Assembly (NCBI GenBank): GCA_964543265.1
Contig: CAZIWN010000001.1
Coordinates: 232,977 to 296,976, forward strand
Length of the DNA: 64,000 nucleotides
From: an uncultured Candidatus Saccharibacteria bacterium
Lineage (GTDB): Bacteria > Patescibacteriota > Minisyncoccia > UBA6257 > 1-14-0-10-40-38
Direction of reading: 5' to 3'
In this document: in pieces, positions 9,809 through 63,495 of the stretch
Layout: each line of letters begins with the position of its first letter
Numbering within the stretch: the first letter of the stretch is position 1
The notes under the pieces: model-generated
The model's input: only the letters and a program-made list of their open reading frames with translations
Told to the model about the DNA's origin: nothing
Databases searched by the model: none
Program-made: the position numbers and the translations under genes

Positions 9809-10117
9809 CTAGTTCTGACTAGCTAATTTTAAACTATCTGTCTCGATATACAAAGGGGACTTTTCTAACACCAATCCTAAAAGTTTAGAATTAGCATTTT
9901 GAGCAGTAGAATTATTGTATTCATCTAAAGATTTAACTAATTCAAAATTTTTAGACTTCTCATTTTTTAAGCTTTCTTGGAGATTAGCAGAAGAGTTTCT
10001 TAAATTCATCGCAATATTATAGTTGTAAACCAAGATTGATAAAAAAGTTAAAGCTCCAACAACCAAAAAACTATTTATCCACATCATTATTCCTATTTTT
10101 TTATTTTTTAAATTCAT
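9809..10117 (-). CDS. FtsL/DivIC-like septum protein (small bitopic coiled-coil protein)
   Basis: 102 aa with one TM helix and a coiled-coil tail. Lies between rsmH and ftsI as in canonical dcw clusters. Confidence 0.4.
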   Translation of the reverse strand: MNLKNKKIGIMMWINSFLVVGALTFLSILVYNYNIAMNLRNSSANLQESLKNEKSKNFELVKSLDEYNNSTAQNANSKLLGLVLEKSPLYIETDSLKLASQN

Positions 10118-10127
10118 TTTTTTATTT

Positions 10128-11036
10128 TTATAAAATTTCTAATGCTCTAAGCTTTGCCGATCTCGATCTTCTATTATTTAAAATCTCATTTCTACTTGGT
10201 GGAATTGGTTTTTTTGTCAAAATTTTACCCAATCCATCTTTTTCCATATTCTTAAATTCATTTTTAACAACTTTATCTTCAAGAGACTGAAACGAAACCA
10301 CCACCACCCTTCCGCCAGGTTTTAAAATATATTTAGAATCTCTTAAAACCTTTTCTATTGCCCCCAATTCATCATTTATAAATATTCTGAAAGCTAAAAA
10401 TGTTCTAGTTGCTGGATGAATGCGTCCCATCTCATAATTTCTTGGTAAAATCTTCTTAATCGCATCAACAAGTTCAAAAGTTGTTTCTATAGGCTTTTTC
10501 CTCTGTGTTTCATATATTGAATCTGCAATTTTTCTAGCAAATCTCTCTCCGCTATAGTCTCTTAAAATTTTTTCGATTTCATCCTTTTTCAATCTCCTTA
10601 AAGCATCTCTTAATGGTTCTTTAGAGTCCTCATAAGTCATTAAAAGCGGTTCGTCTCTCATAAAAGAAAATCCCCTTCCATAATCCTCTATTTCCGGAGA
10701 AGAAAATCCAAGATCTAATACCAACCCATCAGCTTTTTCAACTAATGGATTTATAAATGACTCCCCCAATTCAGAAAAATTTCCCTGCTTAAAAATTAAA
10801 TTTCCAGAAGCCATTTCACCGCTAAATCTATTTTTTCCATTCTTTATAGCTACAGGACTCAAATCTACCGCCAACACAGTTCCATTATCTCCAACAGCTC
10901 CCAAAAACTCCCTAGTATATCCACCCTCTCCAAATGTTCCATCAATTATAAAATCTCCTTTTTTTGGTTTTAGACAATCTATAACTTCTTTTAAAAGTAC
11001 TGGAATGTGAGGCATTGTTTTATATTCCCAACTCAC
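10128..11036 (-). CDS. rsmH: 16S rRNA (cytosine1402-N4)-methyltransferase RsmH (MraW)
   Basis: HIPVLLKEVIDCL start. SAM-binding fold. Immediately follows mraZ. Confidence 0.9.
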   Translation of the reverse strand: MSWEYKTMPHIPVLLKEVIDCLKPKKGDFIIDGTFGEGGYTREFLGAVGDNGTVLAVDLSPVAIKNGKNRFSGEMASGNLIFKQGNFSELGESFINPLVEKADGLVLDLGFSSPEIEDYGRGFSFMRDEPLLMTYEDSKEPLRDALRRLKKDEIEKILRDYSGERFARKIADSIYETQRKKPIETTFELVDAIKKILPRNYEMGRIHPATRTFLAFRIFINDELGAIEKVLRDSKYILKPGGRVVVVSFQSLEDKVVKNEFKNMEKDGLGKILTKKPIPPSRNEILNNRRSRSAKLRALEIL

Positions 11037-11451
11037 CCATCTTTTCAGCTATTTCATCCGACTGTGATTCAGTTTTTGATTTATACTCCTTCCAAGAAGA
11101 TTCATCCCAAACTTCAATTCTATTAAACAATCCAGTCACAACTGCGTTTTTAGATAATCCAGCGTATTGCCTTAAATATTCTGGAATCAATATTCTTCCC
11201 TGAGTATCAACCTCAACATCAACAGCTCCAGACATCATAAGTCTCACAAAAGCCCTGGAATTAGCTTGAGCAAGAGGTAATTCTATAAGCTTGGTGGCCA
11301 ACTTATCCCACTCTGCTTTTGAAAATATAAATAAACACCTATCTAATCCCCTGGTAACAATCGCTCCAGAAACTAAACCCTTCCTGAACTTAGCAGGAAT
11401 TGCCATTCTACCCTTCAAATCTAAACTATGTGAATACTCTCCAATAAACAT
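11020..11451 (-). CDS. mraZ: transcriptional regulator MraZ
   Basis: MFIGEYSHSLDLKGRMAIPAKFR. Duplicated MraZ domain. 143 aa. Confidence 0.9.
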   Translation of the reverse strand: MFIGEYSHSLDLKGRMAIPAKFRKGLVSGAIVTRGLDRCLFIFSKAEWDKLATKLIELPLAQANSRAFVRLMMSGAVDVEVDTQGRILIPEYLRQYAGLSKNAVVTGLFNRIEVWDESSWKEYKSKTESQSDEIAEKMGELGI

Positions 11452-11474
11452 TATTTTTAAAGCAGTTTTTTAAG

Positions 11475-11514
11475 TTATCCCCAGATTCAGCGGTTATCCC
11501 CATAGTTATCCACA
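11475..11514 (+). promoter_or_regulatory. three direct repeats TTATCCCCA / TTATCCCCA / TTATCCACA (DnaA-box-like), 27-76 bp upstream of mraZ
   Basis: Boxes at 11475-11483, 11494-11502 and 11506-11514. The third box is a perfect DnaA-box consensus. On the mraZ-sense strand they read TGKGGATAAC x3. Confidence 0.55.
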
Positions 11515-11587
11515 ATTCCCCACCGCTCATTAAATATACCCCACTCCGCCCCAAACTTCAACAAATAAAACTGTTAATAAATAAAAA

Positions 11588-11623
11588 AATCTGCCTCGAA
11601 ATTTCTTAAGAGGCAGATTTTTA
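11588..11623. terminator. bidirectional terminator after the DUF305 gene
   Basis: ctgcctc-gaaatttctta-gaggcag, flanked by an A-run and a T-run. Confidence 0.55.
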
Positions 11624-11639
11624 TATAAATATACTTTTC

Positions 11640-12056
11640 TTAATTTATTTTTATCATCACATCATTAGAATCTTTGGATTTAAACCATTGCTGCAACCAA
11701 CCCTTCATCTTTTCAATTTCAGAAGTTTGTCCAGCAATAATATCACTAGATAGCATCAATATTTCTGGTCTGTGAGAAGTTATTAGTGCCTTATTTGCCA
11801 TTGAAACAGCTCCTTGGTGATGAGTGATCATCTCACCTAAAAAAGCCTTATCAAATTCATCGCCACTTAAACCATCCAAGCCAGACATCATACCCCTCAC
11901 GCTTTCGTTCATTCCAGAAACGAGCTTACTTCCAGACAAGTTATCAACCACCATATCAGATCCCTTACTCCCACCGTCAAATCCCCAAATCAAAAAACCT
12001 ACAAAAATACCCAAAACCAACAAGATCGCTCCACTAAAAAAATTATTCTTTTGCAT
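11640..12056 (-). CDS. DUF305-family (ferritin-like) secreted protein
   Basis: N-terminal TM/signal. HHQGAVSMA ... EIEKMKGWL motif pair typical of DUF305. Confidence 0.5.
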   Translation of the reverse strand: MQKNNFFSGAILLVLGIFVGFLIWGFDGGSKGSDMVVDNLSGSKLVSGMNESVRGMMSGLDGLSGDEFDKAFLGEMITHHQGAVSMANKALITSHRPEILMLSSDIIAGQTSEIEKMKGWLQQWFKSKDSNDVMIKIN

Positions 12057-46388: not shown

Positions 46389-47600
46389 TTATCTAATGAC
46401 TTGTATTAAATTATATATCGGAAGTAGTAGCGCCGCAAACATAAACCCAACCATTAAACCCAAAAACACCATTATAACTGGCTGTATTAATTCAGAGATA
46501 TTAGAAACTAAATTATCAACCTCTCTAGAATAGAAGGAATTTACCTTCTGAAACATTTCTTCCAATTTTCCAGTCTGCTCACCCACAGATATCATCTGCG
46601 TCACAATTGGCGGAAAATATTTAGCATAAAGCTGAAATGCTTGGCTTAATTGTTCACCCCTCCTAAGTCTTTCAACAATTTCGTGTATTACCTCTTCGTA
46701 CAACTCACTGCCAACAGTGTGACCAGCAATCTCCAAAGATTGAGTTATAGGAATTCCTCCCTTAATTAAAACGCTAGCCACTTCAGAAAATCTTGCAATG
46801 TATAATTTTCTGAAAAGATTACCAAGTCCAGGAATTGCCAAAACAATTTGATTTAAAATAGCTTTTCCCTCCCTGCTCCTGAAATAATCCAAAACAATAA
46901 TTAAAAATATTATTATAAAAACAATAATTCCAGCCCACCATTCATTAATAAAGTCTCCTAAACTTAGAAATATTCTAGTTATTAAAGGAAGCTCAAAATT
47001 AGCTTCAGTAAAAATAGGTTTTATCTGCGGAAAAACTAAACCAACCAAAACTCCTCCAACTATAAGCGATAAGCTGATTACAAAAACAGGATAAATCATA
47101 GCTGTCCTCACCTTCGAAGATAAAAGAAGCTCTTTTTCTAAATAATTAGCTAAATACTCCATCACCTCCTCTAGCCTTCCGGTAACTTCAGCAGATTGGA
47201 CCAAATTTACATAGAAATCAAAAAATATATTTCCATGTTTTTGTAAGGATTGAGAGAAAGAAAGTCCAGAACTTATATCCTGAGAAATTTCATATAAAGC
47301 CTCCTTTAAAACAGAATTAGTTGTTTGATAATAAAGAGAATTTAAAGAGTCTGTTAGTGATATTTTCGCGCCCAACATCGCGGCAAATTGTCTAGTAAAT
47401 ATCGCTAAATCTTTAGATTTAACCCTTTTCCAAAAAAGAAAAATTTCGTTATACCATTTAGGCTCCGAATATTTATCTATGCTTAAAATAAAAAGATCAT
47501 GAGAAATTAAGACACTAGTCGCAGTATCTTTATCCACAGCCTCAACATTACCCACCTGAAGCTCTCCAGTTTTTGTTCTTGCGCTGTATCTAAATTTCAT
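46389..47600 (-). CDS. pilC: type IV pilus assembly platform protein PilC (GspF family)
   Basis: Duplicated GspF domains. 403 aa. Three TM segments. Confidence 0.85.
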   Translation of the reverse strand: MKFRYSARTKTGELQVGNVEAVDKDTATSVLISHDLFILSIDKYSEPKWYNEIFLFWKRVKSKDLAIFTRQFAAMLGAKISLTDSLNSLYYQTTNSVLKEALYEISQDISSGLSFSQSLQKHGNIFFDFYVNLVQSAEVTGRLEEVMEYLANYLEKELLLSSKVRTAMIYPVFVISLSLIVGGVLVGLVFPQIKPIFTEANFELPLITRIFLSLGDFINEWWAGIIVFIIIFLIIVLDYFRSREGKAILNQIVLAIPGLGNLFRKLYIARFSEVASVLIKGGIPITQSLEIAGHTVGSELYEEVIHEIVERLRRGEQLSQAFQLYAKYFPPIVTQMISVGEQTGKLEEMFQKVNSFYSREVDNLVSNISELIQPVIMVFLGLMVGFMFAALLLPIYNLIQVIR

Positions 47601-47620
47601 AATTCCTATTTTTTATTTCT

Positions 47621-48694
47621 CTACATTCTCTCTAATAAAATTCTTAATTCTGATTGATTTAAAGAATAAAGCTCAGCAACCTCTGGAGAAATTATCCTCT
47701 GCCTTACTAAATTAGCAAGAGATCTATTTAAAGTAATCATTCCTTCCTGCATGTTTGTCTCTATTACCAAATCTATCTGATAAGCCTTTCTCTCTCTAAT
47801 TAAGTTTCTTATAGCAGAATTCACAAACATTATTTCGCAAACAGGTATACGCCCTCCTCCAACCTTAGGAAGAAGTCTTTGAGAAACTATAGCCACAAGA
47901 GTTGCAGCAAGCTGAGAAGTAACTTGACCCTGTTGCTCGGCAGGAAAACTGTCTATTATTCTGTCTATTGTCTGAGCAGCTGAATTTGTATGAAGAGTGG
48001 AAAAAACTAAGTGTCCAGTTTCAGCAGCTGTCATGGCTGTAGAAATTGATATAACGTCTCTCATTTCTCCTATCATAACAACGTCTGGGTCCTGTCTTAA
48101 AAGAGATTTAAGTGCGTGATGAAAGCTAATAGTATCTGTCCTCACCTCTCTTTGTGAAATAATTGACCTGTCCTGTGCAAAAAGATATTCGATAGGATCC
48201 TCAATTGTAACAATATGTTCAGTTCTCGTATGATTAACTTCATCAACTAGGGCCGCCAAACTAGTAGATTTTCCATGACCAGCGGGACCCACAAAGAGAA
48301 CAAATCCTTGAGATAGTTTAGTTAAGTCATGAAGTACTGGAGGTAATCCCAATTGCTCAATAGTTTTAACCTTACTAGGAATAAGCCTTAAAGCAGCAGC
48401 CATATAACCTCTTTGAAAAAAAACATTTACCCTAAACCTAGCCTTATCTTCATAAGAATATGAAAAGTCCAATTCGCGCCTAGCTGCAAATTCTTGACTC
48501 TGAGAATCAGTTAGAAGAGACGTCACCAACCCTTCCGCAATTTCCGGAGAAACTATCGGCTCAGCATCAACGGGAACCAACACTCCATCAATTCTCAAGC
48601 TTGGCTTTTTACCAACACCTATATGAATATCTGAAGCATTTTGCTTAACCGCCAAAAGCATCAAACTCTCTAACCTATCTTTATAGTCAGTCAT
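47621..48694 (-). CDS. pilT: twitching-motility retraction ATPase PilT
   Basis: Walker A GPAGHGKST, Asp box, Walker B DPDVVMIGEMRD, His box. 357 aa. Confidence 0.85.
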   Translation of the reverse strand: MTDYKDRLESLMLLAVKQNASDIHIGVGKKPSLRIDGVLVPVDAEPIVSPEIAEGLVTSLLTDSQSQEFAARRELDFSYSYEDKARFRVNVFFQRGYMAAALRLIPSKVKTIEQLGLPPVLHDLTKLSQGFVLFVGPAGHGKSTSLAALVDEVNHTRTEHIVTIEDPIEYLFAQDRSIISQREVRTDTISFHHALKSLLRQDPDVVMIGEMRDVISISTAMTAAETGHLVFSTLHTNSAAQTIDRIIDSFPAEQQGQVTSQLAATLVAIVSQRLLPKVGGGRIPVCEIMFVNSAIRNLIRERKAYQIDLVIETNMQEGMITLNRSLANLVRQRIISPEVAELYSLNQSELRILLERM

Positions 48695-48790
48695 ATTTGT
48701 TTATTTATAAATTATAACTTATTTAGTAATCCCCTGCGAAGTGTAAAAATATATAAAATCTATTTAAGAAAATTATAAAAATTAAGAAAG

Positions 48791-48855
48791 TGCGCAGAGC
48801 GACGACGAAGTTGCATTAAAGCTGTGCGGATACTGCGAGGAGAAACGACAAAGCA
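48791..48855 (+). repeat. intergenic structured repeat, copy 11 (short subfamily)
   Basis: tgcGCAGAGCGACGACGAAGTTGCATTAAAGCTGTGCGGATACTGCGAGGAGAAACGACAAAGCA. Confidence 0.8.
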
Positions 48856-48875
48856 ATTTCTTCATTTTTATAATT

Positions 48876-50615
48876 TTAAACCACTTCCGTTTCGCTAATT
48901 ACATCCTCTATCGAAACAAGTCCCTGCAAAGCTTTTATAATTCCGTCTTGCCTCAATGAGACCATTCCTTGTCTTTCAGCTTCCTTAGAAATATCATTCT
49001 CTGAAAAATTCTTTCCGGCCAAAATCTGAGACAATTCTTTTGTCATCTCAAAAACTTCAAAAATAGCCACACGACCAACTATTCCCTTATTTTTACAAAC
49101 CTTACAACCATTAGCTTTATACACCTTAAACGGTTCTTTTATCTGAAACTTGCTCTGTATGGAAGATAATTCTTTCTTTATAACATTTAAAATCTCTGGT
49201 GATGGATCGTGCGACGTCTTACAGTTATCGCACAATTTAGAAATCAATCTTTGTCCCGCCATAGCAGAAATCGCGGAAGGTAAAAGATATCCAGAAACAC
49301 CCAAATCTATTAATCTAGGAATAACTCCGACAGCATTATTTGTGTGTAAAGTTGAAAGCAGTATGTGACCAGTTAAAGCAGCATTAACGGCCAAATCTGC
49401 AGTTTCTTTATCGCGAATTTCTCCAACCATTAAAATATCCGGATCTTGTCTTAATATTTCTCTAAGTCCTGACGCAAAGCTATATCCTATCTCTGGCTTA
49501 ATTTGAGATTGATTAATGCCCTCAATCGTATATTCAACAGGATCTTCCAAACTCATAACATTAACATTTTCCTTATTTAAAATTTTCATCAGAGCATACA
49601 AAGTGGTTGTTTTTCCTGATCCAGTTGGACCAGTTAGAAGAACCATACCATAAGCCCTCTCTATAGCCCTTCTTAGAATTTCCGAGCTTTGTCCAACAAT
49701 ACCCAAATCCTCAAGATTTTTTAAGCCAGTAGCGCTATCCAAAACCCTCAAAGCAACCTTTTCGCCATTAGGTGTTGGGAAAGTTGAAACCCTGAAATCT
49801 ATTTCCTTTTCAAAAATCATCGTCCTAAATCTTCCATCTTGGGGAATCCTGGTTTCATCCAGCTTCAAACTAGAAAGAATTTTTACACGAGAAACTATGG
49901 CCTGAGATAATTCTGGAGGAAAAGAAGTGTATTCTTCTAAATTTCCATTTAATCTAAATCTAACCCTAGTCTTTAGTCTTCCCGGCTCTATATGAATATC
50001 AGATGCTTTAGCCCCCACAGCCTCTTTCAAAAGACCAGAAACTATTCTTATTATGGGAGCGCCAATTTCTTTATTTGAAGAACTGGCTTCATCTAGCTTA
50101 ATAATTTTTTGAAACGATTTAAATTCGTCAGCTCCTTTTTCCGATTTTAAAAAACTTAAAGCTTCCTTTATCTCATCCGATATTGGATTATATTTATTAA
50201 TTACCGCATAAACATCAGAAGGAGTAACTATATAAACACCAAGGTTAACCTTTTCTCTTGAAGCTAAAAATTTTAAAGCCTGCTGGGCTTGTGTATCGTC
50301 TGGATTCACCATTCCAACCACAATCATATCCTGAGTTCTACTCATAGGAGTCATCTTAAAACTCCTAGCATTATCAAAAGGAATTAACTTAACTAAATCT
50401 TCTGATATAGAAGCAACATCTATTTTTTTAAAAGGTATTTTTAAGATTCTTGATTTTATCTTAGCAACATCATCTTCGGAAACTAAATTATCAGAATAAA
50501 TAACCTCTTCAGCAGTTTTTTTTACAGAATCAGCCTCTCTTAAAACCCTAGACCCATCTTCTTGTGTTAAAAGACCTTCTGTTACTAAGGCAGAAATTAA
50601 ATCCTGGTTTTTCAT
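48876..50615 (-). CDS. pilB: type IV pilus assembly ATPase PilB (GspE family)
   Basis: N-terminal GspII domain. Walker A GPTGSGKTT. Tetracysteine CDNC...CKVC. 579 aa. Confidence 0.85.
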   Translation of the reverse strand: MKNQDLISALVTEGLLTQEDGSRVLREADSVKKTAEEVIYSDNLVSEDDVAKIKSRILKIPFKKIDVASISEDLVKLIPFDNARSFKMTPMSRTQDMIVVGMVNPDDTQAQQALKFLASREKVNLGVYIVTPSDVYAVINKYNPISDEIKEALSFLKSEKGADEFKSFQKIIKLDEASSSNKEIGAPIIRIVSGLLKEAVGAKASDIHIEPGRLKTRVRFRLNGNLEEYTSFPPELSQAIVSRVKILSSLKLDETRIPQDGRFRTMIFEKEIDFRVSTFPTPNGEKVALRVLDSATGLKNLEDLGIVGQSSEILRRAIERAYGMVLLTGPTGSGKTTTLYALMKILNKENVNVMSLEDPVEYTIEGINQSQIKPEIGYSFASGLREILRQDPDILMVGEIRDKETADLAVNAALTGHILLSTLHTNNAVGVIPRLIDLGVSGYLLPSAISAMAGQRLISKLCDNCKTSHDPSPEILNVIKKELSSIQSKFQIKEPFKVYKANGCKVCKNKGIVGRVAIFEVFEMTKELSQILAGKNFSENDISKEAERQGMVSLRQDGIIKALQGLVSIEDVISETEVV

Positions 50616-50621
50616 TTTTAT

Positions 50622-50915
50622 CTAAAAAGGAACAAATGGATTTTCTCGACCATTAACACCGAACCCAGGTTTTGGAGCAAAACTTCTTAATTTTTCCAAA
50701 TCTTTATTTTTAAAAACAGCGCTCGGATCTATATATTGAGAATTAGCAATAATCTCAGCCTCTTTTAAACCAACCGGTAAAATTACTTCAAATTTAGGAG
50801 TGTCGGAAAAAAACAAATAATAAGCAGCCACTACAAAAAAACCGATTATAAAAAGAACAGTTGTCCACCTCACCCAATTTATTTTAGCTTGCTTAGGTTC
50901 AAATATTATTGCCAT
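50622..50915 (-). CDS. small bitopic protein in the pilus locus
   Basis: 97 aa with one TM helix. Function unknown. Confidence 0.3.
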   Translation of the reverse strand: MAIIFEPKQAKINWVRWTTVLFIIGFFVVAAYYLFFSDTPKFEVILPVGLKEAEIIANSQYIDPSAVFKNKDLEKLRSFAPKPGFGVNGRENPFVPF

Positions 50916-50920
50916 AAATT

Positions 50921-51475
50921 TTATTCAGTATAATAAGTATTTAATACGACCGAGTAAGAATTATTACCCTTATCATCTGGAATAATATTCATAGAAACAA
51001 TGTCCATAATTCTCATATTTTTTTCCACGTCAGTTATAAATGTCTTGAATTTTTCATAAGGACCCTTTAATTGCAATTTAACTTGCAAAACTGAATTTTG
51101 AGTAAAGTCTCTGCCTTTAGCAGACTTATTTGGAAGAAGATTAAAATCTAAAGAAACTAAAAGTATTCCATCAATTTTAGAAATTGCATTTATTTGATAC
51201 AAAAAAGATTCATACTCAGGATCTTTCGGAACTATATTTAAAGCATTTTTTTCAAGATTAGCTAATTGGTCCTGATAATTAGAAAGCACATCCTTAACTT
51301 TTGCCACAACACTTTCTTGGTTTGCTATTGTAGATTTATTCGCAGAATATTCCCCTCTTAAAACCGATACCTGGCTATAAGCTGGTCTTAAAAAGAACAA
51401 AAACAAAATAATGGAACCAAATAAAAGCCCCAGACTTAAAACCAAACTTATAAATCTTTTAGATGATCCTTTCAT
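50921..51475 (-). CDS. PilO-like pilus assembly protein
   Basis: Single N-terminal TM, coiled-coil, periplasmic domain. Position after pilN. Confidence 0.5.
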   Translation of the reverse strand: MKGSSKRFISLVLSLGLLFGSIILFLFFLRPAYSQVSVLRGEYSANKSTIANQESVVAKVKDVLSNYQDQLANLEKNALNIVPKDPEYESFLYQINAISKIDGILLVSLDFNLLPNKSAKGRDFTQNSVLQVKLQLKGPYEKFKTFITDVEKNMRIMDIVSMNIIPDDKGNNSYSVVLNTYYTE

Positions 51476-52017
51476 TTTTGAGATTTTAAGAAGTTATTAT
51501 TAAAATAAACACTTAGATCAAATTCCACCTTTCCACCCTCAATTAATCTCGCATTAGTTGTCTGATATTTAGAAACATAATCCAAACTATTTATTAACGA
51601 AATCTGATAGGACAAAATATCGTAATCACGAGCAATTCCTCTTAAGTTAAGCTTTGCTCCCTGAACATCAAAATCAAAACTTTTCCAAAAAATAGACTTG
51701 TTTGTATTAAACTGTAAAAAATCAAAAACTCTAGAGGCAACAAGTCTAGAATTTAATAATCTATCTATAGAAACTAGTTCCCTCTCAAAGCTTTGAAACC
51801 TATCCTGATCCTCTCGTGAAATTTCATTAGCCAACGAATTTAAACTATCTTTAGTTTCCGCAATTCTTTTTTCTAAAAGAGGAACATATCCAAAACTCAA
51901 ACCCAAATAAGAAATTAAAATTAAAGAAAAAATTACCACTAAAAAACTCAAAAGTTTAGAAGCTCCCTCAGGCCTCAACTCATCCTTAAATTGTGGATTT
52001 TTATTAAAATCTGCCAT
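51472..52017 (-). CDS. PilN-like pilus assembly protein
   Basis: Short cytoplasmic N-terminus, TM helix, coiled-coil. Overlaps pilO by 4 nt. Confidence 0.5.
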   Translation of the reverse strand: MADFNKNPQFKDELRPEGASKLLSFLVVIFSLILISYLGLSFGYVPLLEKRIAETKDSLNSLANEISREDQDRFQSFERELVSIDRLLNSRLVASRVFDFLQFNTNKSIFWKSFDFDVQGAKLNLRGIARDYDILSYQISLINSLDYVSKYQTTNARLIEGGKVEFDLSVYFNNNFLKSQK

Positions 52018-52061
52018 TTTTTATACAAATTTCTCTACAAAATCTTGAAAGATAAAGTAAT

Positions 52062-52127
52062 TACAAGGAGCTCTGACGAAGCCGTATTAAAGCCAAGCAC
52101 ATACGGCAAGAAAGAATCGATGCAGTA
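52062..52127 (+). repeat. intergenic structured repeat, copy 12 (short subfamily, perfect internal stem gccgtat/atacggc)
   Basis: tacAAGGAGCTCTGACGAAGCCGTATTAAAGCCAAGCACATACGGCAAGAAAGAATCGATGCAGTA. Confidence 0.8.
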
Positions 52128-52148
52128 ATTGGCTAGTTTGCAAATATT

Positions 52149-53222
52149 TTAAACGTAAGCCTTGATGGCTGCGCCAATCGCTACTCCCAAATTAACCCCC
52201 ATCCCCTTCAAAACATTTTCCAAGATTTTGTCGTAATTCAAATCCTTAAATGGATCTGCCTTAACAACTTTCACGCCCAATTTGCTTTCAAAATAAGATT
52301 CTATTCCAAACAAATTAGAGCTTCCTCCAGACAAAATCGCCAAGCTGACCTTCTCTCCATAATTAGACTCAAAATTTGAGACAAGACGCTTCGCCTCATA
52401 AAGTATAACATCTAAGACAGGTGTAATTAGTGTGGATAACTCGTGCTCTCCAGACGAACCATAAAGACCTCTTTCTTTTTTAAAGTCTTCTGATCTTCTT
52501 GGGTGAATATTTAATCCATTTGATATAGTTTGAGTAATCGAACTGCCGGCAAAATCGGTCTGACCTAAAGATTTTAAAAGCCCGTTATTTGAGATTGCAA
52601 TCGCGCTAGACCTAGCCCCTATATCAATAATTAATTGATTTTCAGAAACACCCCTGGTTAACGCTCTAGCTAGGCTTATTCCTTCAACCTCCAAAGAAAC
52701 TAATTTTAAGCCAGCGTAAGCAAATATGCTTTGATATTTTGATATCAAATCTTTTGGAACAGCTACCAAAAGAACCTGATTCTTTTTTAATCCAGACTCA
52801 TCAACTCGCTCCCCAACCTTCATCCAATCTAAAGCAATGGTATTGAGCGGCAACGGTATATATTGCTGCGCCTGTAAATCTATAAATTTTTTAATTTCAG
52901 AATCTGTCATCGCCGGCACTTCAGCTAAAGTTGTAAAAACAGAAAAAGCAGAAATAGAAGCATTAGCTTCTTTTGTTTTAAAGCCGGCTTTTTGAACTAA
53001 AAGTTTTAACATCGGACCGACAACCTCTTCAGAAATCTTTAAACTGCTTGTTTGAAATGCTTCATTAAATCTTTCTAAATAAGAATAAATATCAAGCACT
53101 CCATAATTTCCCAAAGTTAGCGTATTTCCAGATCTTAAAACTTCAGCGATTTTTATTGACGTAGTTCCTATATCAACCCCCAAAAAAGAATTACCCTTTA
53201 ATATTGAGCTAAAAAGAGACAT
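52149..53222 (-). CDS. pilM: type IV pilus assembly ATPase-fold protein PilM
   Basis: Actin-like fold start FLGVDIGTTSIKIAEV. Start trimmed to MSLFSSIL, which removes the overlap with comFC. Confidence 0.8.
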   Translation of the reverse strand: MSLFSSILKGNSFLGVDIGTTSIKIAEVLRSGNTLTLGNYGVLDIYSYLERFNEAFQTSSLKISEEVVGPMLKLLVQKAGFKTKEANASISAFSVFTTLAEVPAMTDSEIKKFIDLQAQQYIPLPLNTIALDWMKVGERVDESGLKKNQVLLVAVPKDLISKYQSIFAYAGLKLVSLEVEGISLARALTRGVSENQLIIDIGARSSAIAISNNGLLKSLGQTDFAGSSITQTISNGLNIHPRRSEDFKKERGLYGSSGEHELSTLITPVLDVILYEAKRLVSNFESNYGEKVSLAILSGGSSNLFGIESYFESKLGVKVVKADPFKDLNYDKILENVLKGMGVNLGVAIGAAIKAYV

Positions 53223-53262
53223 ATTTGATTGTTTGTAATAAAATTGTAACATAAAAAATGAG

Positions 53263-53979
53263 ATGAAAAAAATTCTCATCTGCATAAAAACATTAATCAT
53301 CGATTGTCTTTTTCCCAACATCTGCGGTTTTTGCGAAAAAAATCTAGAAAAAAAGACTGAGATAAACGGTTTATGCGATAATTGTTTTCATAAAATTGAA
53401 ATCTATGATTTTTTCTCTTGCGGGAAATGCTTCGCTCGCTTACCAAATAATAAAAAAATCTGTCACCAGGAATTGAAATATATTTTAGGTAGCGCTTCAA
53501 CTTTTAAAAACGAAATAATTCAAAAATTAATAAAAGGGCTCAAATATGAAAGGCGTCAAAATTTGAGCCTACCAGCATCTCAAATAATTAAATTATTTAT
53601 CCAAAAAACAAACTTTAATTTCAAGGATTATTTAATAATTCCAATACCAATTCATAAATCAAAAGAAAAAATAAGAGGATTTAATCACGCAGAATTAATC
53701 GGAGAGCATCTCTCAAAATCAAACGACCTAAGAATGATAAAAAATTGCCTGATAAAATCAAAAAACACCAAATCCCAAACCGAAACAGAAAATCATGAAG
53801 AAAGATTTAAAAATATAAAAGATAGTTTCTTGATTAAAAATCCCGAATTAATAAAAAACCAAAACATAATCCTACTAGACGATGTCTCAACCAGTGGCGC
53901 AACCCTAAGTGAAGCCAGTGAAATCTTAAAAAAATCCGGAGCCAAAAATATAATTGCCCTAGTCCTAGCAAAAGCATAA
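53263..53979 (+). CDS. comFC: competence protein ComFC (phosphoribosyltransferase-type)
   Basis: N-terminal C4 zinc finger CGFC..CDNC..CGKC. PRTase motif IILLDDVSTSGATL. Confidence 0.8.
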   Translation: MKKILICIKTLIIDCLFPNICGFCEKNLEKKTEINGLCDNCFHKIEIYDFFSCGKCFARLPNNKKICHQELKYILGSASTFKNEIIQKLIKGLKYERRQNLSLPASQIIKLFIQKTNFNFKDYLIIPIPIHKSKEKIRGFNHAELIGEHLSKSNDLRMIKNCLIKSKNTKSQTETENHEERFKNIKDSFLIKNPELIKNQNIILLDDVSTSGATLSEASEILKKSGAKNIIALVLAKA

Positions 53980-61156: not shown

Positions 61157-61876
61157 TTAATTGTGTTGGACTTTTAGCTTATGCGTCTCATAGCTCAAGT
61201 GATTATCTCTAATATTAGATGCGATTTCTATATATTTTTTATGTTCCTTAATAAAATCTTCAAACAAAACTGGCAATATAAAAGAGTGGTCGTTCCCTCG
61301 ATGAATTTCATTTCTTTTACAAGAATTACAATTAAATGTATCCTTATTAATTTTATTGAACATATTTTCCCTTAATAAGTAAAAAAGTGTAGGCGTATTC
61401 CAAGTTCTTGTATTACAAAAAACACAATTATGAAAAGTCACTAAATATTCATAGCTTTTATTAAGGTCTGGCAATACTACTGCGAGCATGGCATTTGTTC
61501 TACTTGTTTTACCTCCTCTTCTTTTGTCGTTTCTTAGAGAATAAGATATTTCGTTGGGTATCCACTGCTCTTTTTCTATTTTGGTTCTGTCAAACATATT
61601 GGGGGATACTAAAACTATAGTCACAGAACTATCAAAAATTTTACCTTTTAATTTTGTATCAATTGTATCATTTGAAAATTCAGCCAGCGATTCATTATCT
61701 TTTTCACCCTTAAAAATATTATCGCCATTTTTTGTAAGTAATGTTTCTAAAAAATTAACATAATGTCTCGCGGTTATTTTATTGTCGGTATCTTTACCTA
61801 TTTCATAACTAAAAAAATCACTATAGTTATATACATTACTGTCTTTGTGTTTGTAGCTAATAAAAACTTTGGCCAT
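61157..61876 (-). CDS. TIR-domain protein (ThsB/DUF1863-like) with C-terminal CxxC..CxxC segment
   Basis: MAKVFISYKHKD...IVLVSPNMF...EQWIPNEI matches the bacterial TIR pattern. The C-terminus has CVFCN...CNSC. Confidence 0.6.
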   Translation of the reverse strand: MAKVFISYKHKDSNVYNYSDFFSYEIGKDTDNKITARHYVNFLETLLTKNGDNIFKGEKDNESLAEFSNDTIDTKLKGKIFDSSVTIVLVSPNMFDRTKIEKEQWIPNEISYSLRNDKRRGGKTSRTNAMLAVVLPDLNKSYEYLVTFHNCVFCNTRTWNTPTLFYLLRENMFNKINKDTFNCNSCKRNEIHRGNDHSFILPVLFEDFIKEHKKYIEIASNIRDNHLSYETHKLKVQHN

Positions 61877-62319: not shown

Positions 62320-63390
62320 TTATTTTTTCCTTTTAATTAAAATTCGTGCGTACAATTCTTTATTTGTCCCAGGTAAAATACCACGATGTTTATGCAGAGG
62401 ATCTTTTCTTAATCTTTCTACTTCTGGTGTCTTGTCACCACTATGAGTCTGACCTATAACCTCAAATTGATCGGGATTATATTTATCAATAAAAGTAAGA
62501 GGAACACCCATGACGCCACTATAATCCATAGGAATTTCAGAAACTTTTGATACTTCAATAGCATCATAATTGTCATACTTTGGATATTCTTCAGGTTTAT
62601 AGTTTTTATAAAAAGTCATTTTCTCGTGGCGTTTTAAGGTATCAAGATTCGTGAACCACAAAATACGCCCCATACTAAAATATTTTATACCGTCTACAAT
62701 TTTTTTTCTTGATTCCGTCTCTATGTCATAATCTTTGGGAACCTGAAACCATTTTGTGCCACCATTATCATAACCAAGCCACAATTTATTTTCCTTGATA
62801 AGTTTGAAAATTTCTTTATACGTTATAGCGTTCTGATCACCGAGAATCAAAAACTTTTTCCTATATTCAACAAGTTGTGCCACGTATTCTCGAAATAAAG
62901 AAAACGGCGGATTGGTGACTACAATGTCTGCTTCTTTGAGCAATTCAACACACTCATCGCTTCTAAAATCGCCACCGCCTTTTAAGGGAGCGGATACATT
63001 GGCGTCGTGCTTAAGTAGATACTCTACATCAGCCAAGTCTATAGAACCGTCAGTGTTGCTATCCGGAACTTTATTAATTTCAATCTTTATTGGCTGCTTA
63101 CCTTTAGACCCAGCTATTTTAGGTAGTGACAATTGTCCCCCAATAATTGGCGAACCGCTGCAACTGGTAGTAATCAGTTTCTTGAGTTTTAATTCGTTAA
63201 ATTTAGAAGCAAAATATTTGAAAAAATTGCTTTCAAACGGATCATCGCAGTTACAATACACTACCTTATCATTGAACTGATCTTTATAGTGCTTAAGCTC
63301 TTTTTCGATATCAACAAGCTGGGTATAAAACTCATCTTTTTTTGCCTTGCTTGCCCTATGTAAATTCTTATTTAAAGATTTGGTCGCCAT
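62320..63390 (-). CDS. N6-adenine DNA methyltransferase, EcoRI-methylase-like family
   Basis: DEFYTQ...KVVYCNCDDPFESNFFKYF...DIVVTNPPFSLFREY...KYDNYDAI pattern. Start trimmed to MATKSL because the ORF-track N-terminus is a read-through of tRNA-Ser. Confidence 0.7.
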   Translation of the reverse strand: MATKSLNKNLHRASKAKKDEFYTQLVDIEKELKHYKDQFNDKVVYCNCDDPFESNFFKYFASKFNELKLKKLITTSCSGSPIIGGQLSLPKIAGSKGKQPIKIEINKVPDSNTDGSIDLADVEYLLKHDANVSAPLKGGGDFRSDECVELLKEADIVVTNPPFSLFREYVAQLVEYRKKFLILGDQNAITYKEIFKLIKENKLWLGYDNGGTKWFQVPKDYDIETESRKKIVDGIKYFSMGRILWFTNLDTLKRHEKMTFYKNYKPEEYPKYDNYDAIEVSKVSEIPMDYSGVMGVPLTFIDKYNPDQFEVIGQTHSGDKTPEVERLRKDPLHKHRGILPGTNKELYARILIKRKK

Positions 63391-63408
63391 TGTTTCAATC
63401 AAAATTTG

Positions 63409-63495
63409 CGGTGAGGGCGAGATTCGAACTCGCGATGCCCTTTCGGACATAACAGTTTTCAAGACTGTCGCCTTAGACCACTCGGCCACCTCACC
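63409..63495 (-). tRNA. tRNA-Ser (anticodon TGA), long variable arm
   Basis: Reverse complement GGTGAGGTGGCCGAGTGGTCTAAGGCGACAGTCTTGAAAACTGT-variable arm-GCGAGTTCGAATCTCGCCCTCACCG. Confidence 0.85.

Follow-up and report, generated by a model that had tools for sequence, protein, structure and literature searches.

A putative composite MraZ- and DnaA-type operator at the mraZ promoter of a Patescibacteria bacterium

The promoter of the mraZ-led division gene cluster in the DNA analysed here, a stretch of 64,000 nucleotides hereafter called the window, carries an array of six boxes of the MraZ type, one of which is fused to a perfect DnaA-type nonamer. On balance, we lean towards a composite operator, in which the six boxes would serve MraZ autorepression and the nonamer would be read by DnaA. 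A preliminary description of the region had considered an MraZ operator, a DnaA-regulated dcw promoter, or both; the last is the option favoured here, the MraZ part being well supported and the DnaA part being deduced by comparison among loci. That this arrangement represents a phylum-wide switch of the dcw cluster, with DnaA and MraZ reading overlapping boxes of the same helical phase, fused here as TGTGGATAAC, is a more tentative proposal, to which we give slightly less than even weight. What is new is that some two-thirds of the sampled lineages carry one perfect DnaA nonamer at the mraZ promoter, at varying positions and orientations, and that it is fused to an MraZ box in the lineage of the window; MraZ operators as such were already known. 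The elements of the region are listed below, with the offsets of the box cores given from box a.

11020..11451, minus strand: mraZ, 143 aa (PF02381), ATG at 11451
Minus strand, mraZ first: mraZ-rsmH-ftsL-ftsI-murF cluster, rsmH being of the MraW methylase family
11475-11483, plus strand: repeat 1, TTATCCCCA, box d on the mraZ strand
11494-11502, plus strand: repeat 2, TTATCCCCA, box c on the mraZ strand
11506-11514, plus strand: repeat 3, TTATCCACA, box b on the mraZ strand
11474..11483, minus strand: box d, TGGGGATAAC; core GGGG, first base 11482; offset +41; one DnaA-box mismatch, as in box c
11493..11502, minus strand: box c, TGGGGATAAC; MraZ register ATGG, 11500-11503; offset +20; one DnaA-box mismatch
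11505..11514, minus strand: box b, TGTGGATAAC; core GTGG, first base 11513; offset +10; perfect DnaA nonamer
11518..11523, minus strand: box a, GTGGGG(AATT); core GTGG, first base 11523; near the predicted start; offset 0
11533..11538, minus strand: predicted -10 hexamer, TATATT
11539..11544, minus strand: box 1, GTGGGG; core GTGG, first base 11544; abuts the -10 hexamer; offset -21
11549..11553, minus strand: spacer box, TGGGG (weak TTGG core, 11551-11554), in the -35/-10 spacer; offset -31
11556..11561, minus strand: predicted -35 hexamer of the mraZ/dcw promoter, TTGAAG, with a 17-nt spacer to TATATT
11581..11626, minus strand: hairpin and T-run, -18.7 kcal/mol, z = -6.2
11640-12056: DUF305 gene (profile match) upstream of the mraZ region

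Each of the three repeats is preceded by a G on the plus strand, so that on the minus strand, which is that of mraZ, they read TGGGGATAAC, TGGGGATAAC and TGTGGATAAC. These are the TG(G/T)GGATAAC direct repeats recognised in the preliminary description, and the start-to-start spacing of 19 and 12 nt, as well as the perfect DnaA box formed by the third repeat (TTATCCACA at 11506-11514), were found as it had reported. Two of its statements had to be amended. With the ATG placed at 11451, the repeats are 24-63 nt, and not 27-76 nt, upstream of the start of mraZ. The array also proved larger than three repeats, as further TGGGG/GTGG boxes with their T at 11522, 11543 and 11553 lie upstream of them and bring the number to six. 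For the middle repeat (box c), the repeat itself stands and its DnaA-like reading sits 2 bp outside the register of the MraZ lattice. Only 11506-11514 (box b) matches the DnaA consensus TTATNCACA, while both TTATCCCCA copies deviate from it at position 7, which leaves at most one strong candidate DnaA site in the window. The three repeats form a non-chance cluster: the 64-kb window contains six TTATCCMCA where 1.25 would be expected, none of 100 shuffles reached six, and the mraZ promoter holds three of the six occurrences.

On the mraZ strand, six TG(G/T)GG words (T at 11553, 11543, 11522, 11514, 11502 and 11483) fall within 86 nt. This is the single such cluster in the 64-kb window, which answers the concern that equally dense clusters might be scattered at random. 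The cores of the boxes, (G/A/T)TGG or GGGG, are all placed on one lattice of ~10.3 bp, six positions of which are occupied versus a mean of 2.5 in shuffled sequences (P about 0.001). All six boxes have the same orientation, boxes a, b and c follow one another at exactly 10 bp, and the offsets of -31, -21, 0, +10, +20 and +41 bring the cores to one side of the helix. The strongest cores are the GTGG at 11544, 11523 and 11513, with ATGG, GGGG and TTGG as weaker variants. Of the six boxes, two are located in the -35/-10 spacer, and the transcript is predicted to include the other four in its first ~50 nt. Judging from the -10 hexamer alone, transcription would start at ~11525-11527, giving a predicted 5' leader of ~75 nt. 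The predicted promoter is of the sigma-70 type, and its columns TTGAC-N17-TAnAAT are kept in 31 relatives in an anchored alignment. On the other side, the hairpin at 11581..11626 terminates the DUF305 gene and bounds the mraZ control region upstream; the boxes are flanked by co-directional genes.

The assignment of this array as an MraZ operator is well supported, binding being deduced from the 10-bp GTGG/ATGG register, the overlap with the promoter, the lattice found in 147 loci (see below) and the presence of K13, R15 and R86 in the MraZ protein; this first option of the preliminary description emerges strongly supported. The boxes span 11474-11554, adjoin mraZ and overlap the dcw promoter, and they comprise at least three direct repeats with a GTG(G/T) core, in one orientation and with a 10-bp period. 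MraZ boxes consist of GTG(G/T) with six-nt spacers, are usually three in number (four in M. genitalium), contain the transcription start inside the first box, and are read over ~4 bp per box through Lys13, Arg15 and Arg86 (PMC12957436). In B. subtilis the MraZ-binding repeats are three GTGG[A/T]G (B. subtilis MraZ preprint). The MraZ of the window aligns without gaps over residues 1-102 with those of M. genitalium and M. pneumoniae (9qlr and 1n0e), so that K13, R15 and R86 are conserved at the same positions. The array thus resembles the operators of E. coli (Pmra), B. subtilis and M. genitalium in its GTG(G/T)-type direct repeats, 6-nt spacers and 10-bp period, in its place directly upstream of mraZ over the promoter and start site, and in these three residues of the cognate protein. 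It differs from their three to four contiguous boxes in having six lattice positions over ~75 bp, two of them empty, in that some cores are ATGG, TTGG or GGGG, and in the conserved ATAAC tail by which two to three boxes complete a DnaA-box nonamer. Whereas the four-box operator of M. genitalium was solved by cryo-EM (PMC12957436), that of Patescibacteria is known here from its sequence. An MraZ operator at this place is expected and ordinary, and this one adds to its class a member whose array is unusually long and gapped.

By analogy with the solved M. genitalium complex, and from the anatomy and conservation of the site, a repression step may be proposed. MraZ would bind the phased boxes cooperatively as an oligomer, in the form of an opened ring that places one subunit on each box. 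The bound protein would extend from the -10 hexamer over the start site to ~50 nt into the transcribed region. Its occupancy would shut off its own operon, mraZ-rsmH-ftsL-ftsI-murF, by autorepression.

Conservation was studied on 80 genome loci, 80 metagenome loci and 13 loci for the closest proteins, which gave a non-redundant set of 147 mraZ upstream regions, the window included. The metagenome scan returned relatives at 59-71% identity, which are not the closest ones, and the closest loci were collected individually; the MraZ relatives are annotated as Paceibacteria or Patescibacteria (CPR). The array recurs among these 147 regions, as the preliminary description had required of a functional element. 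Distances between GTGG words on the sense strand peak at 10 bp (147 pairs), 20/21 bp (105/33 pairs), 30/31 bp (93/50), 40/41/42 bp (21/44/23, 88 in total) and 51 bp (31), and no peaks were seen for antisense GTGG-GTGG distances in the same regions. A -10-abutting box with a downstream lattice is recognisable in 128 of the 147 loci, and no box of the set is more widely shared than the equivalent of box 1, a GTGG just before the -10 hexamer ('GTGGtgTAAAAT'). The commonest layout is TTGACg...aGTGGtgTAAAATGGa-N6-GTGGGGaaaaGTGGtgaaaa, with four boxes overlapping the -10 hexamer.

The a-b-c-d layout of the window is common to 31 loci, whose MraZ is only 59-92% identical to that of the window. It consists of box 1 at the -10 hexamer, then GTGGnGAAAT (the consensus of box a), GTGGATAAnTA, TGGGGAtAA, ~10 nt, and TG(G/T)GGATAAC. 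In the anchored alignment, GTGGATAA at box b is the most conserved stretch. The position of box c is occupied in relatives by an ordinary MraZ-type box, (A/G)TGGGGA(A/T)AA, which has a true GTGG in three loci (L008, L081 and L085), and that of box d by a perfect TGTGGATAAC in L003, L110, L153, L142 and others. The spacer box is found also in L001 and L161 and is not conserved more widely. Counted from box 1, same-strand perfect nonamers are placed at +30/+31 in 13 loci and the variant TGGGGATAA at +61/+62 in 10 loci. The distance between array and promoter is constant, while that from the array to the ATG ranges, with the length of the leader, from ~25 to >200 nt; being fixed relative to the promoter and not to the ATG, the array acts together with the promoter rather than with the ribosome-binding region. 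The box module remains with mraZ in loci that have different upstream genes.

Within the array, the nonamer appears to constitute a second class of box. A perfect TGTGGATAA is present at most 300 nt upstream of mraZ in 97 of the 147 loci, versus 10 of 1803 background windows of 300 nt taken from the same loci (0.6%); allowing one mismatch, it is found in 137 of 147 loci and in 9.7% of the background windows. The full nonamer is ~100-fold enriched upstream of mraZ across the phylum sample, in counts that overstate the number of independent events because the loci are related by descent; after clustering of MraZ at 80% identity, a perfect box occurs in at least one member of 46 of the 58 clusters. 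Of the 69 perfect nonamers in the first 80 loci (410 kb), 54 lie within 300 nt of the ATG. The nonamer-bearing loci mostly contain exactly one perfect copy (85/97); perfect copies are confined to the sense strand in 61 loci and to the antisense strand in 31, and 5 loci have them on both.

Judged by their sequence surroundings, T-GTGG-ATAA-C boxes behave differently from ordinary A-GTGG-KG-AAAA boxes across Patescibacteria, and a two-class model would set TGTGGATAAC against GTGGGGAAAA. The base preceding GTGGATAA is T in 75 of 99 sense copies and in 36 of 40 antisense copies, and corresponds to position 9 of the DnaA box, whereas other GTGG boxes are preceded by A in 319 of 529 cases and by T in 17%. 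Ordinary GTGG boxes are restricted to the sense strand, and among GTGG words on the antisense strand enrichment is seen for GTGGATAA[G/C/A] alone (40/146). In most lineages the promoter-proximal MraZ boxes are devoid of the ATAA tail, and the nonamer is found apart from them, either as TGTGGATAAC on the far side of the -35 hexamer, ~41 bp upstream of box 1, or as an inverted TTATCCACA ~87-97 bp upstream. In the group of the window, lattice boxes b and d have the nonamer fused to them. As MraZ reads ~4 bp, it leaves the ATAA(C) tail unexplained.

The principal alternative is that MraZ reads all six boxes, TG(G/T)GGATAAC included, and that the resemblance to the DnaA box is a coincidence due to the shared GTGG; a variant of it ascribes the ATAAC tail to a lineage preference for certain spacers (DNA shape) or to an extended specificity of Patescibacteria MraZ. 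We regard it as possible, though rather doubtful. It would account for the fact that same-strand nonamers all fall on the MraZ lattice, at offsets of -41, -31, +31 and +63, and for the commonest one-mismatch variant, TGGGGATAA (44 copies), which is off TTATNCACA at position 7 and is changed inside the MraZ core, not at the positions that vary in known DnaA boxes. It could also draw on the AT-rich spacers and the affinity-adding, non-specific backbone contacts seen by cryo-EM (PMC12957436). However, 36 loci carry the perfect nonamer inverted, 31 of them exclusively, and a head-to-tail MraZ array cannot use an inverted box. Nor does a reader of ~4 bp explain the conservation of all nine positions, the T in place of A before the nonamer, or the separate TGTGGATAAC that is kept upstream of the -35 hexamer when the promoter-proximal boxes mostly lack the tail.

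A composite operator with DnaA as the second protein fits these observations better. The DnaA consensus is 5'-TTATNCACA (PMC4447404), with which the mraZ nonamer is identical letter for letter, and this identity, together with a precedent in B. subtilis, makes DnaA the most economical candidate; the T-GTGG-ATAA-C boxes are, from their sequence, most likely bound by DnaA. According to the statements that cite Goranov 2005 in PMC2533591 and PMC8203912, DnaA binds and negatively regulates the yllB(=mraZ)-ftsL promoter of B. subtilis. The preprint on B. subtilis MraZ likewise cites DnaA regulation of this promoter, and the binding was shown by chromatin immunoprecipitation, as cited for Goranov et al. 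2005; the main text of Smith and Grossman 2015 makes no mention of yllB, mraZ or ftsL. The two cases share a DnaA-box sequence in the promoter of an mraZ-led operon and an implied logic, from replication status to division-gene transcription. They differ in that binding was shown in B. subtilis and is deduced for Patescibacteria, and in that the DnaA box of the window is fused in register with an MraZ box, within a nonamer that is conserved phylum-wide (97/147 perfect). The idea of a DnaA-regulated dcw promoter gains comparative support from the enrichment of the nonamer, its use in either orientation and the flanking T, for one perfect box only of the three originally put forward.

In such a promoter, DnaA would bind box b, perhaps extending weakly to boxes c and d, and would feed replication status into division-gene transcription, as at yllB/mraZ in B. 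subtilis. Because the DnaA nonamer shares GTGG with the MraZ box, one may speculate that MraZ and DnaA would be rivals for box b, or would take each other's place at it.

The two-class evidence calls only for a reader of ~9 bp that is indifferent to orientation, and does not name the protein. MraZ might accordingly share the promoter with a helix-turn-helix protein resembling DnaA domain IV, or with another Patescibacteria regulator, and two loci (L048 and L022) do carry an ORF for an IS200-like Y1 transposase with perfect nonamers directly upstream. We consider this unlikely, as the motif is identical to the DnaA consensus TTATCCACA and DnaA, present in virtually all bacteria, recognises it in model species (PMC4447404). 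Moreover, no alternative protein candidate was identified, and Pfam found no DnaA_C in the L048 ORF.

The converse proposal, an array of DnaA alone with a strong anchor, two weak boxes of the same orientation and no part for MraZ, is very improbable. Its layout, one perfect box with same-orientation near-matches 12 and 19 nt away, resembles the anchor-plus-weak-site arrays of E. coli oriC, but it leaves out of account the other three TGGGG/GTGG boxes and the 10-bp lattice of GTGG words in the 147 loci; in addition, box c is an ordinary MraZ-type box in relatives and the weak boxes are off TTATNCACA at position 7. No more credible is an element acting at the RNA level, in which the G-rich leader repeats would form a G-quadruplex, a ribosome-binding mimic or a riboswitch-like structure. 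The predicted transcript does include boxes a-d, three of which have a GGGG, but neither the leader of the window nor those of its relatives gave an Rfam match, two boxes lie upstream of the -10 hexamer, and the array tracks the promoter and not the start codon. Relatives, furthermore, swap GGGG for GTGG at homologous boxes, which abolishes the G-tracts; on account of these swaps and of the link to the promoter, the G-quadruplex and Shine-Dalgarno readings were rejected.

A replication origin, or an origin-linked DnaA cluster, finally, is suggested by the three DnaA-like boxes within 40 bp but is extremely improbable, given a GC skew that is negative and monotonic across all 64 kb with no switch, boxes of one orientation inside the promoter/5' leader between co-directional genes, and relatives in which the boxes stay with mraZ although the upstream genes differ. 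A Pfam scan of ten window ORFs revealed no dnaA, nor did tblastn in the window and all loci with an approximate query made of DnaA fragments. The view that an origin was unlikely for want of a strand switch accordingly holds. Like the DnaA-box clusters of oriC, the promoter combines a consensus TTATCCACA with weaker neighbours of the same orientation; unlike them, it contains a single perfect box and is accompanied in the window by no unwinding element, no dnaA/dnaN neighbour and no skew switch, and the oriC reading was excluded on these grounds.

Three other perfect TTATCCACA are present in the window, all intragenic, and were treated as chance occurrences:

10075: inside the coding sequence of ftsL
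47530: inside a pilC-like coding sequence
52431: inside a pilM-like coding sequence

The first (10075-10083; TGTGGATAA on the gene strand, encoding M-W-I-N) is close to the 5' end of the ftsL-like ORF, in the same operon as mraZ, and is probably due to chance since it is absent from the 92%-identical relative L001. The other two belong to a type IV pilus cluster (46389-53321), where the T2SSF/PilC-like gene (46389-47600) and the PilM gene (52149-53321) each hold one TTATCCACA. Further along the window, an ORF of the EcoRI_methylase family (62320-63489) is found near an ORF with a faint ThsB_TIR match (61157-61876), as seen through locus L175, and the segment 61157-63489 may be a restriction or defence island.

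To our knowledge, the control of the cell cycle in Patescibacteria (CPR) is essentially uncharacterised. Their genomes are very small, their regulators are few, and hardly any of them has been cultivated. In the literature searched, a phylum-wide pairing or fusion of a DnaA nonamer with the mraZ promoter was not described, and no paper pairs 'DnaA box' with CPR terms; the pairing in Patescibacteria extends what was a single precedent in B. subtilis. The conserved nine-base word beside mraZ suggests that DnaA may also control division genes. If true, replication status would be coupled to the division genes directly and phylum-wide in bacteria of minimal genome. Should DnaA bind, the DnaA-to-ftsL link of B. 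subtilis would be an ancient and widespread coupling of replication and division, and the 100-bp fragment of the window would offer a compact substrate for two oligomerising proteins that share one operator.

Several observations were made at other loci. In L048, two perfect TTATCCACA are found at 1258 and 1296, just upstream of the ORF that precedes mraZ (1340-2203), which encodes the IS200-like Y1 transposase (PF01797, Y1_Tnp; Pfam). The same transposase ORF is found in L022 (974-1858), where a single perfect nonamer precedes it. Inspected by eye, the C-terminal part of this ORF resembles the helix-turn-helix of DnaA domain IV, with no Pfam call.

Eight loci (L010, L040, L045, L060, L070, L020, L033 and L036) share a conserved module ~140-200 nt upstream of mraZ, with an upstream gene that varies; in the coordinates of these loci mraZ is at 2501, or at 513 in L060. 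The module comprises, in this order, an inverted TTATCCACA just past the stop of the upstream gene, a terminator made up of a GC-rich hairpin and a T-run, and finally 'GTTTTATATTAGCCAAAA', which includes TTAGCCAAAA.

In L019, L024, L033, L037, L038, L066, L071, L072 and many others, 'ATGCTTGTC(T)' is found directly downstream of the last MraZ box. It belongs to Magasanikbacteria-type loci and stands ~40-60 nt upstream of mraZ (near 2456 in L019, for example). It could be the start of a short leader ORF, the region of the start site or another binding site.

The last ~150 nt before mraZ contain repeated 'TTAGTG(T/C)AAA...ATTCGTGGT' units in L026, L035, L111, L112, L120, L121 and L154, and these leaders finish with '...CGTGGTTCT' immediately before the ATG. 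In some loci of this group (L026 and L035, for example), a perfect DnaA nonamer is located ~600 nt upstream; this points to either a very long leader or the use of another promoter. In four Wolfebacteria loci (L005, L007, L082 and L083), the mraZ leader contains, at ~2400-2490 and between the MraZ boxes and the ATG, about ten tandem units of 7-8 nt, with the sequences CATACCT, TATACCT or TATACCG.
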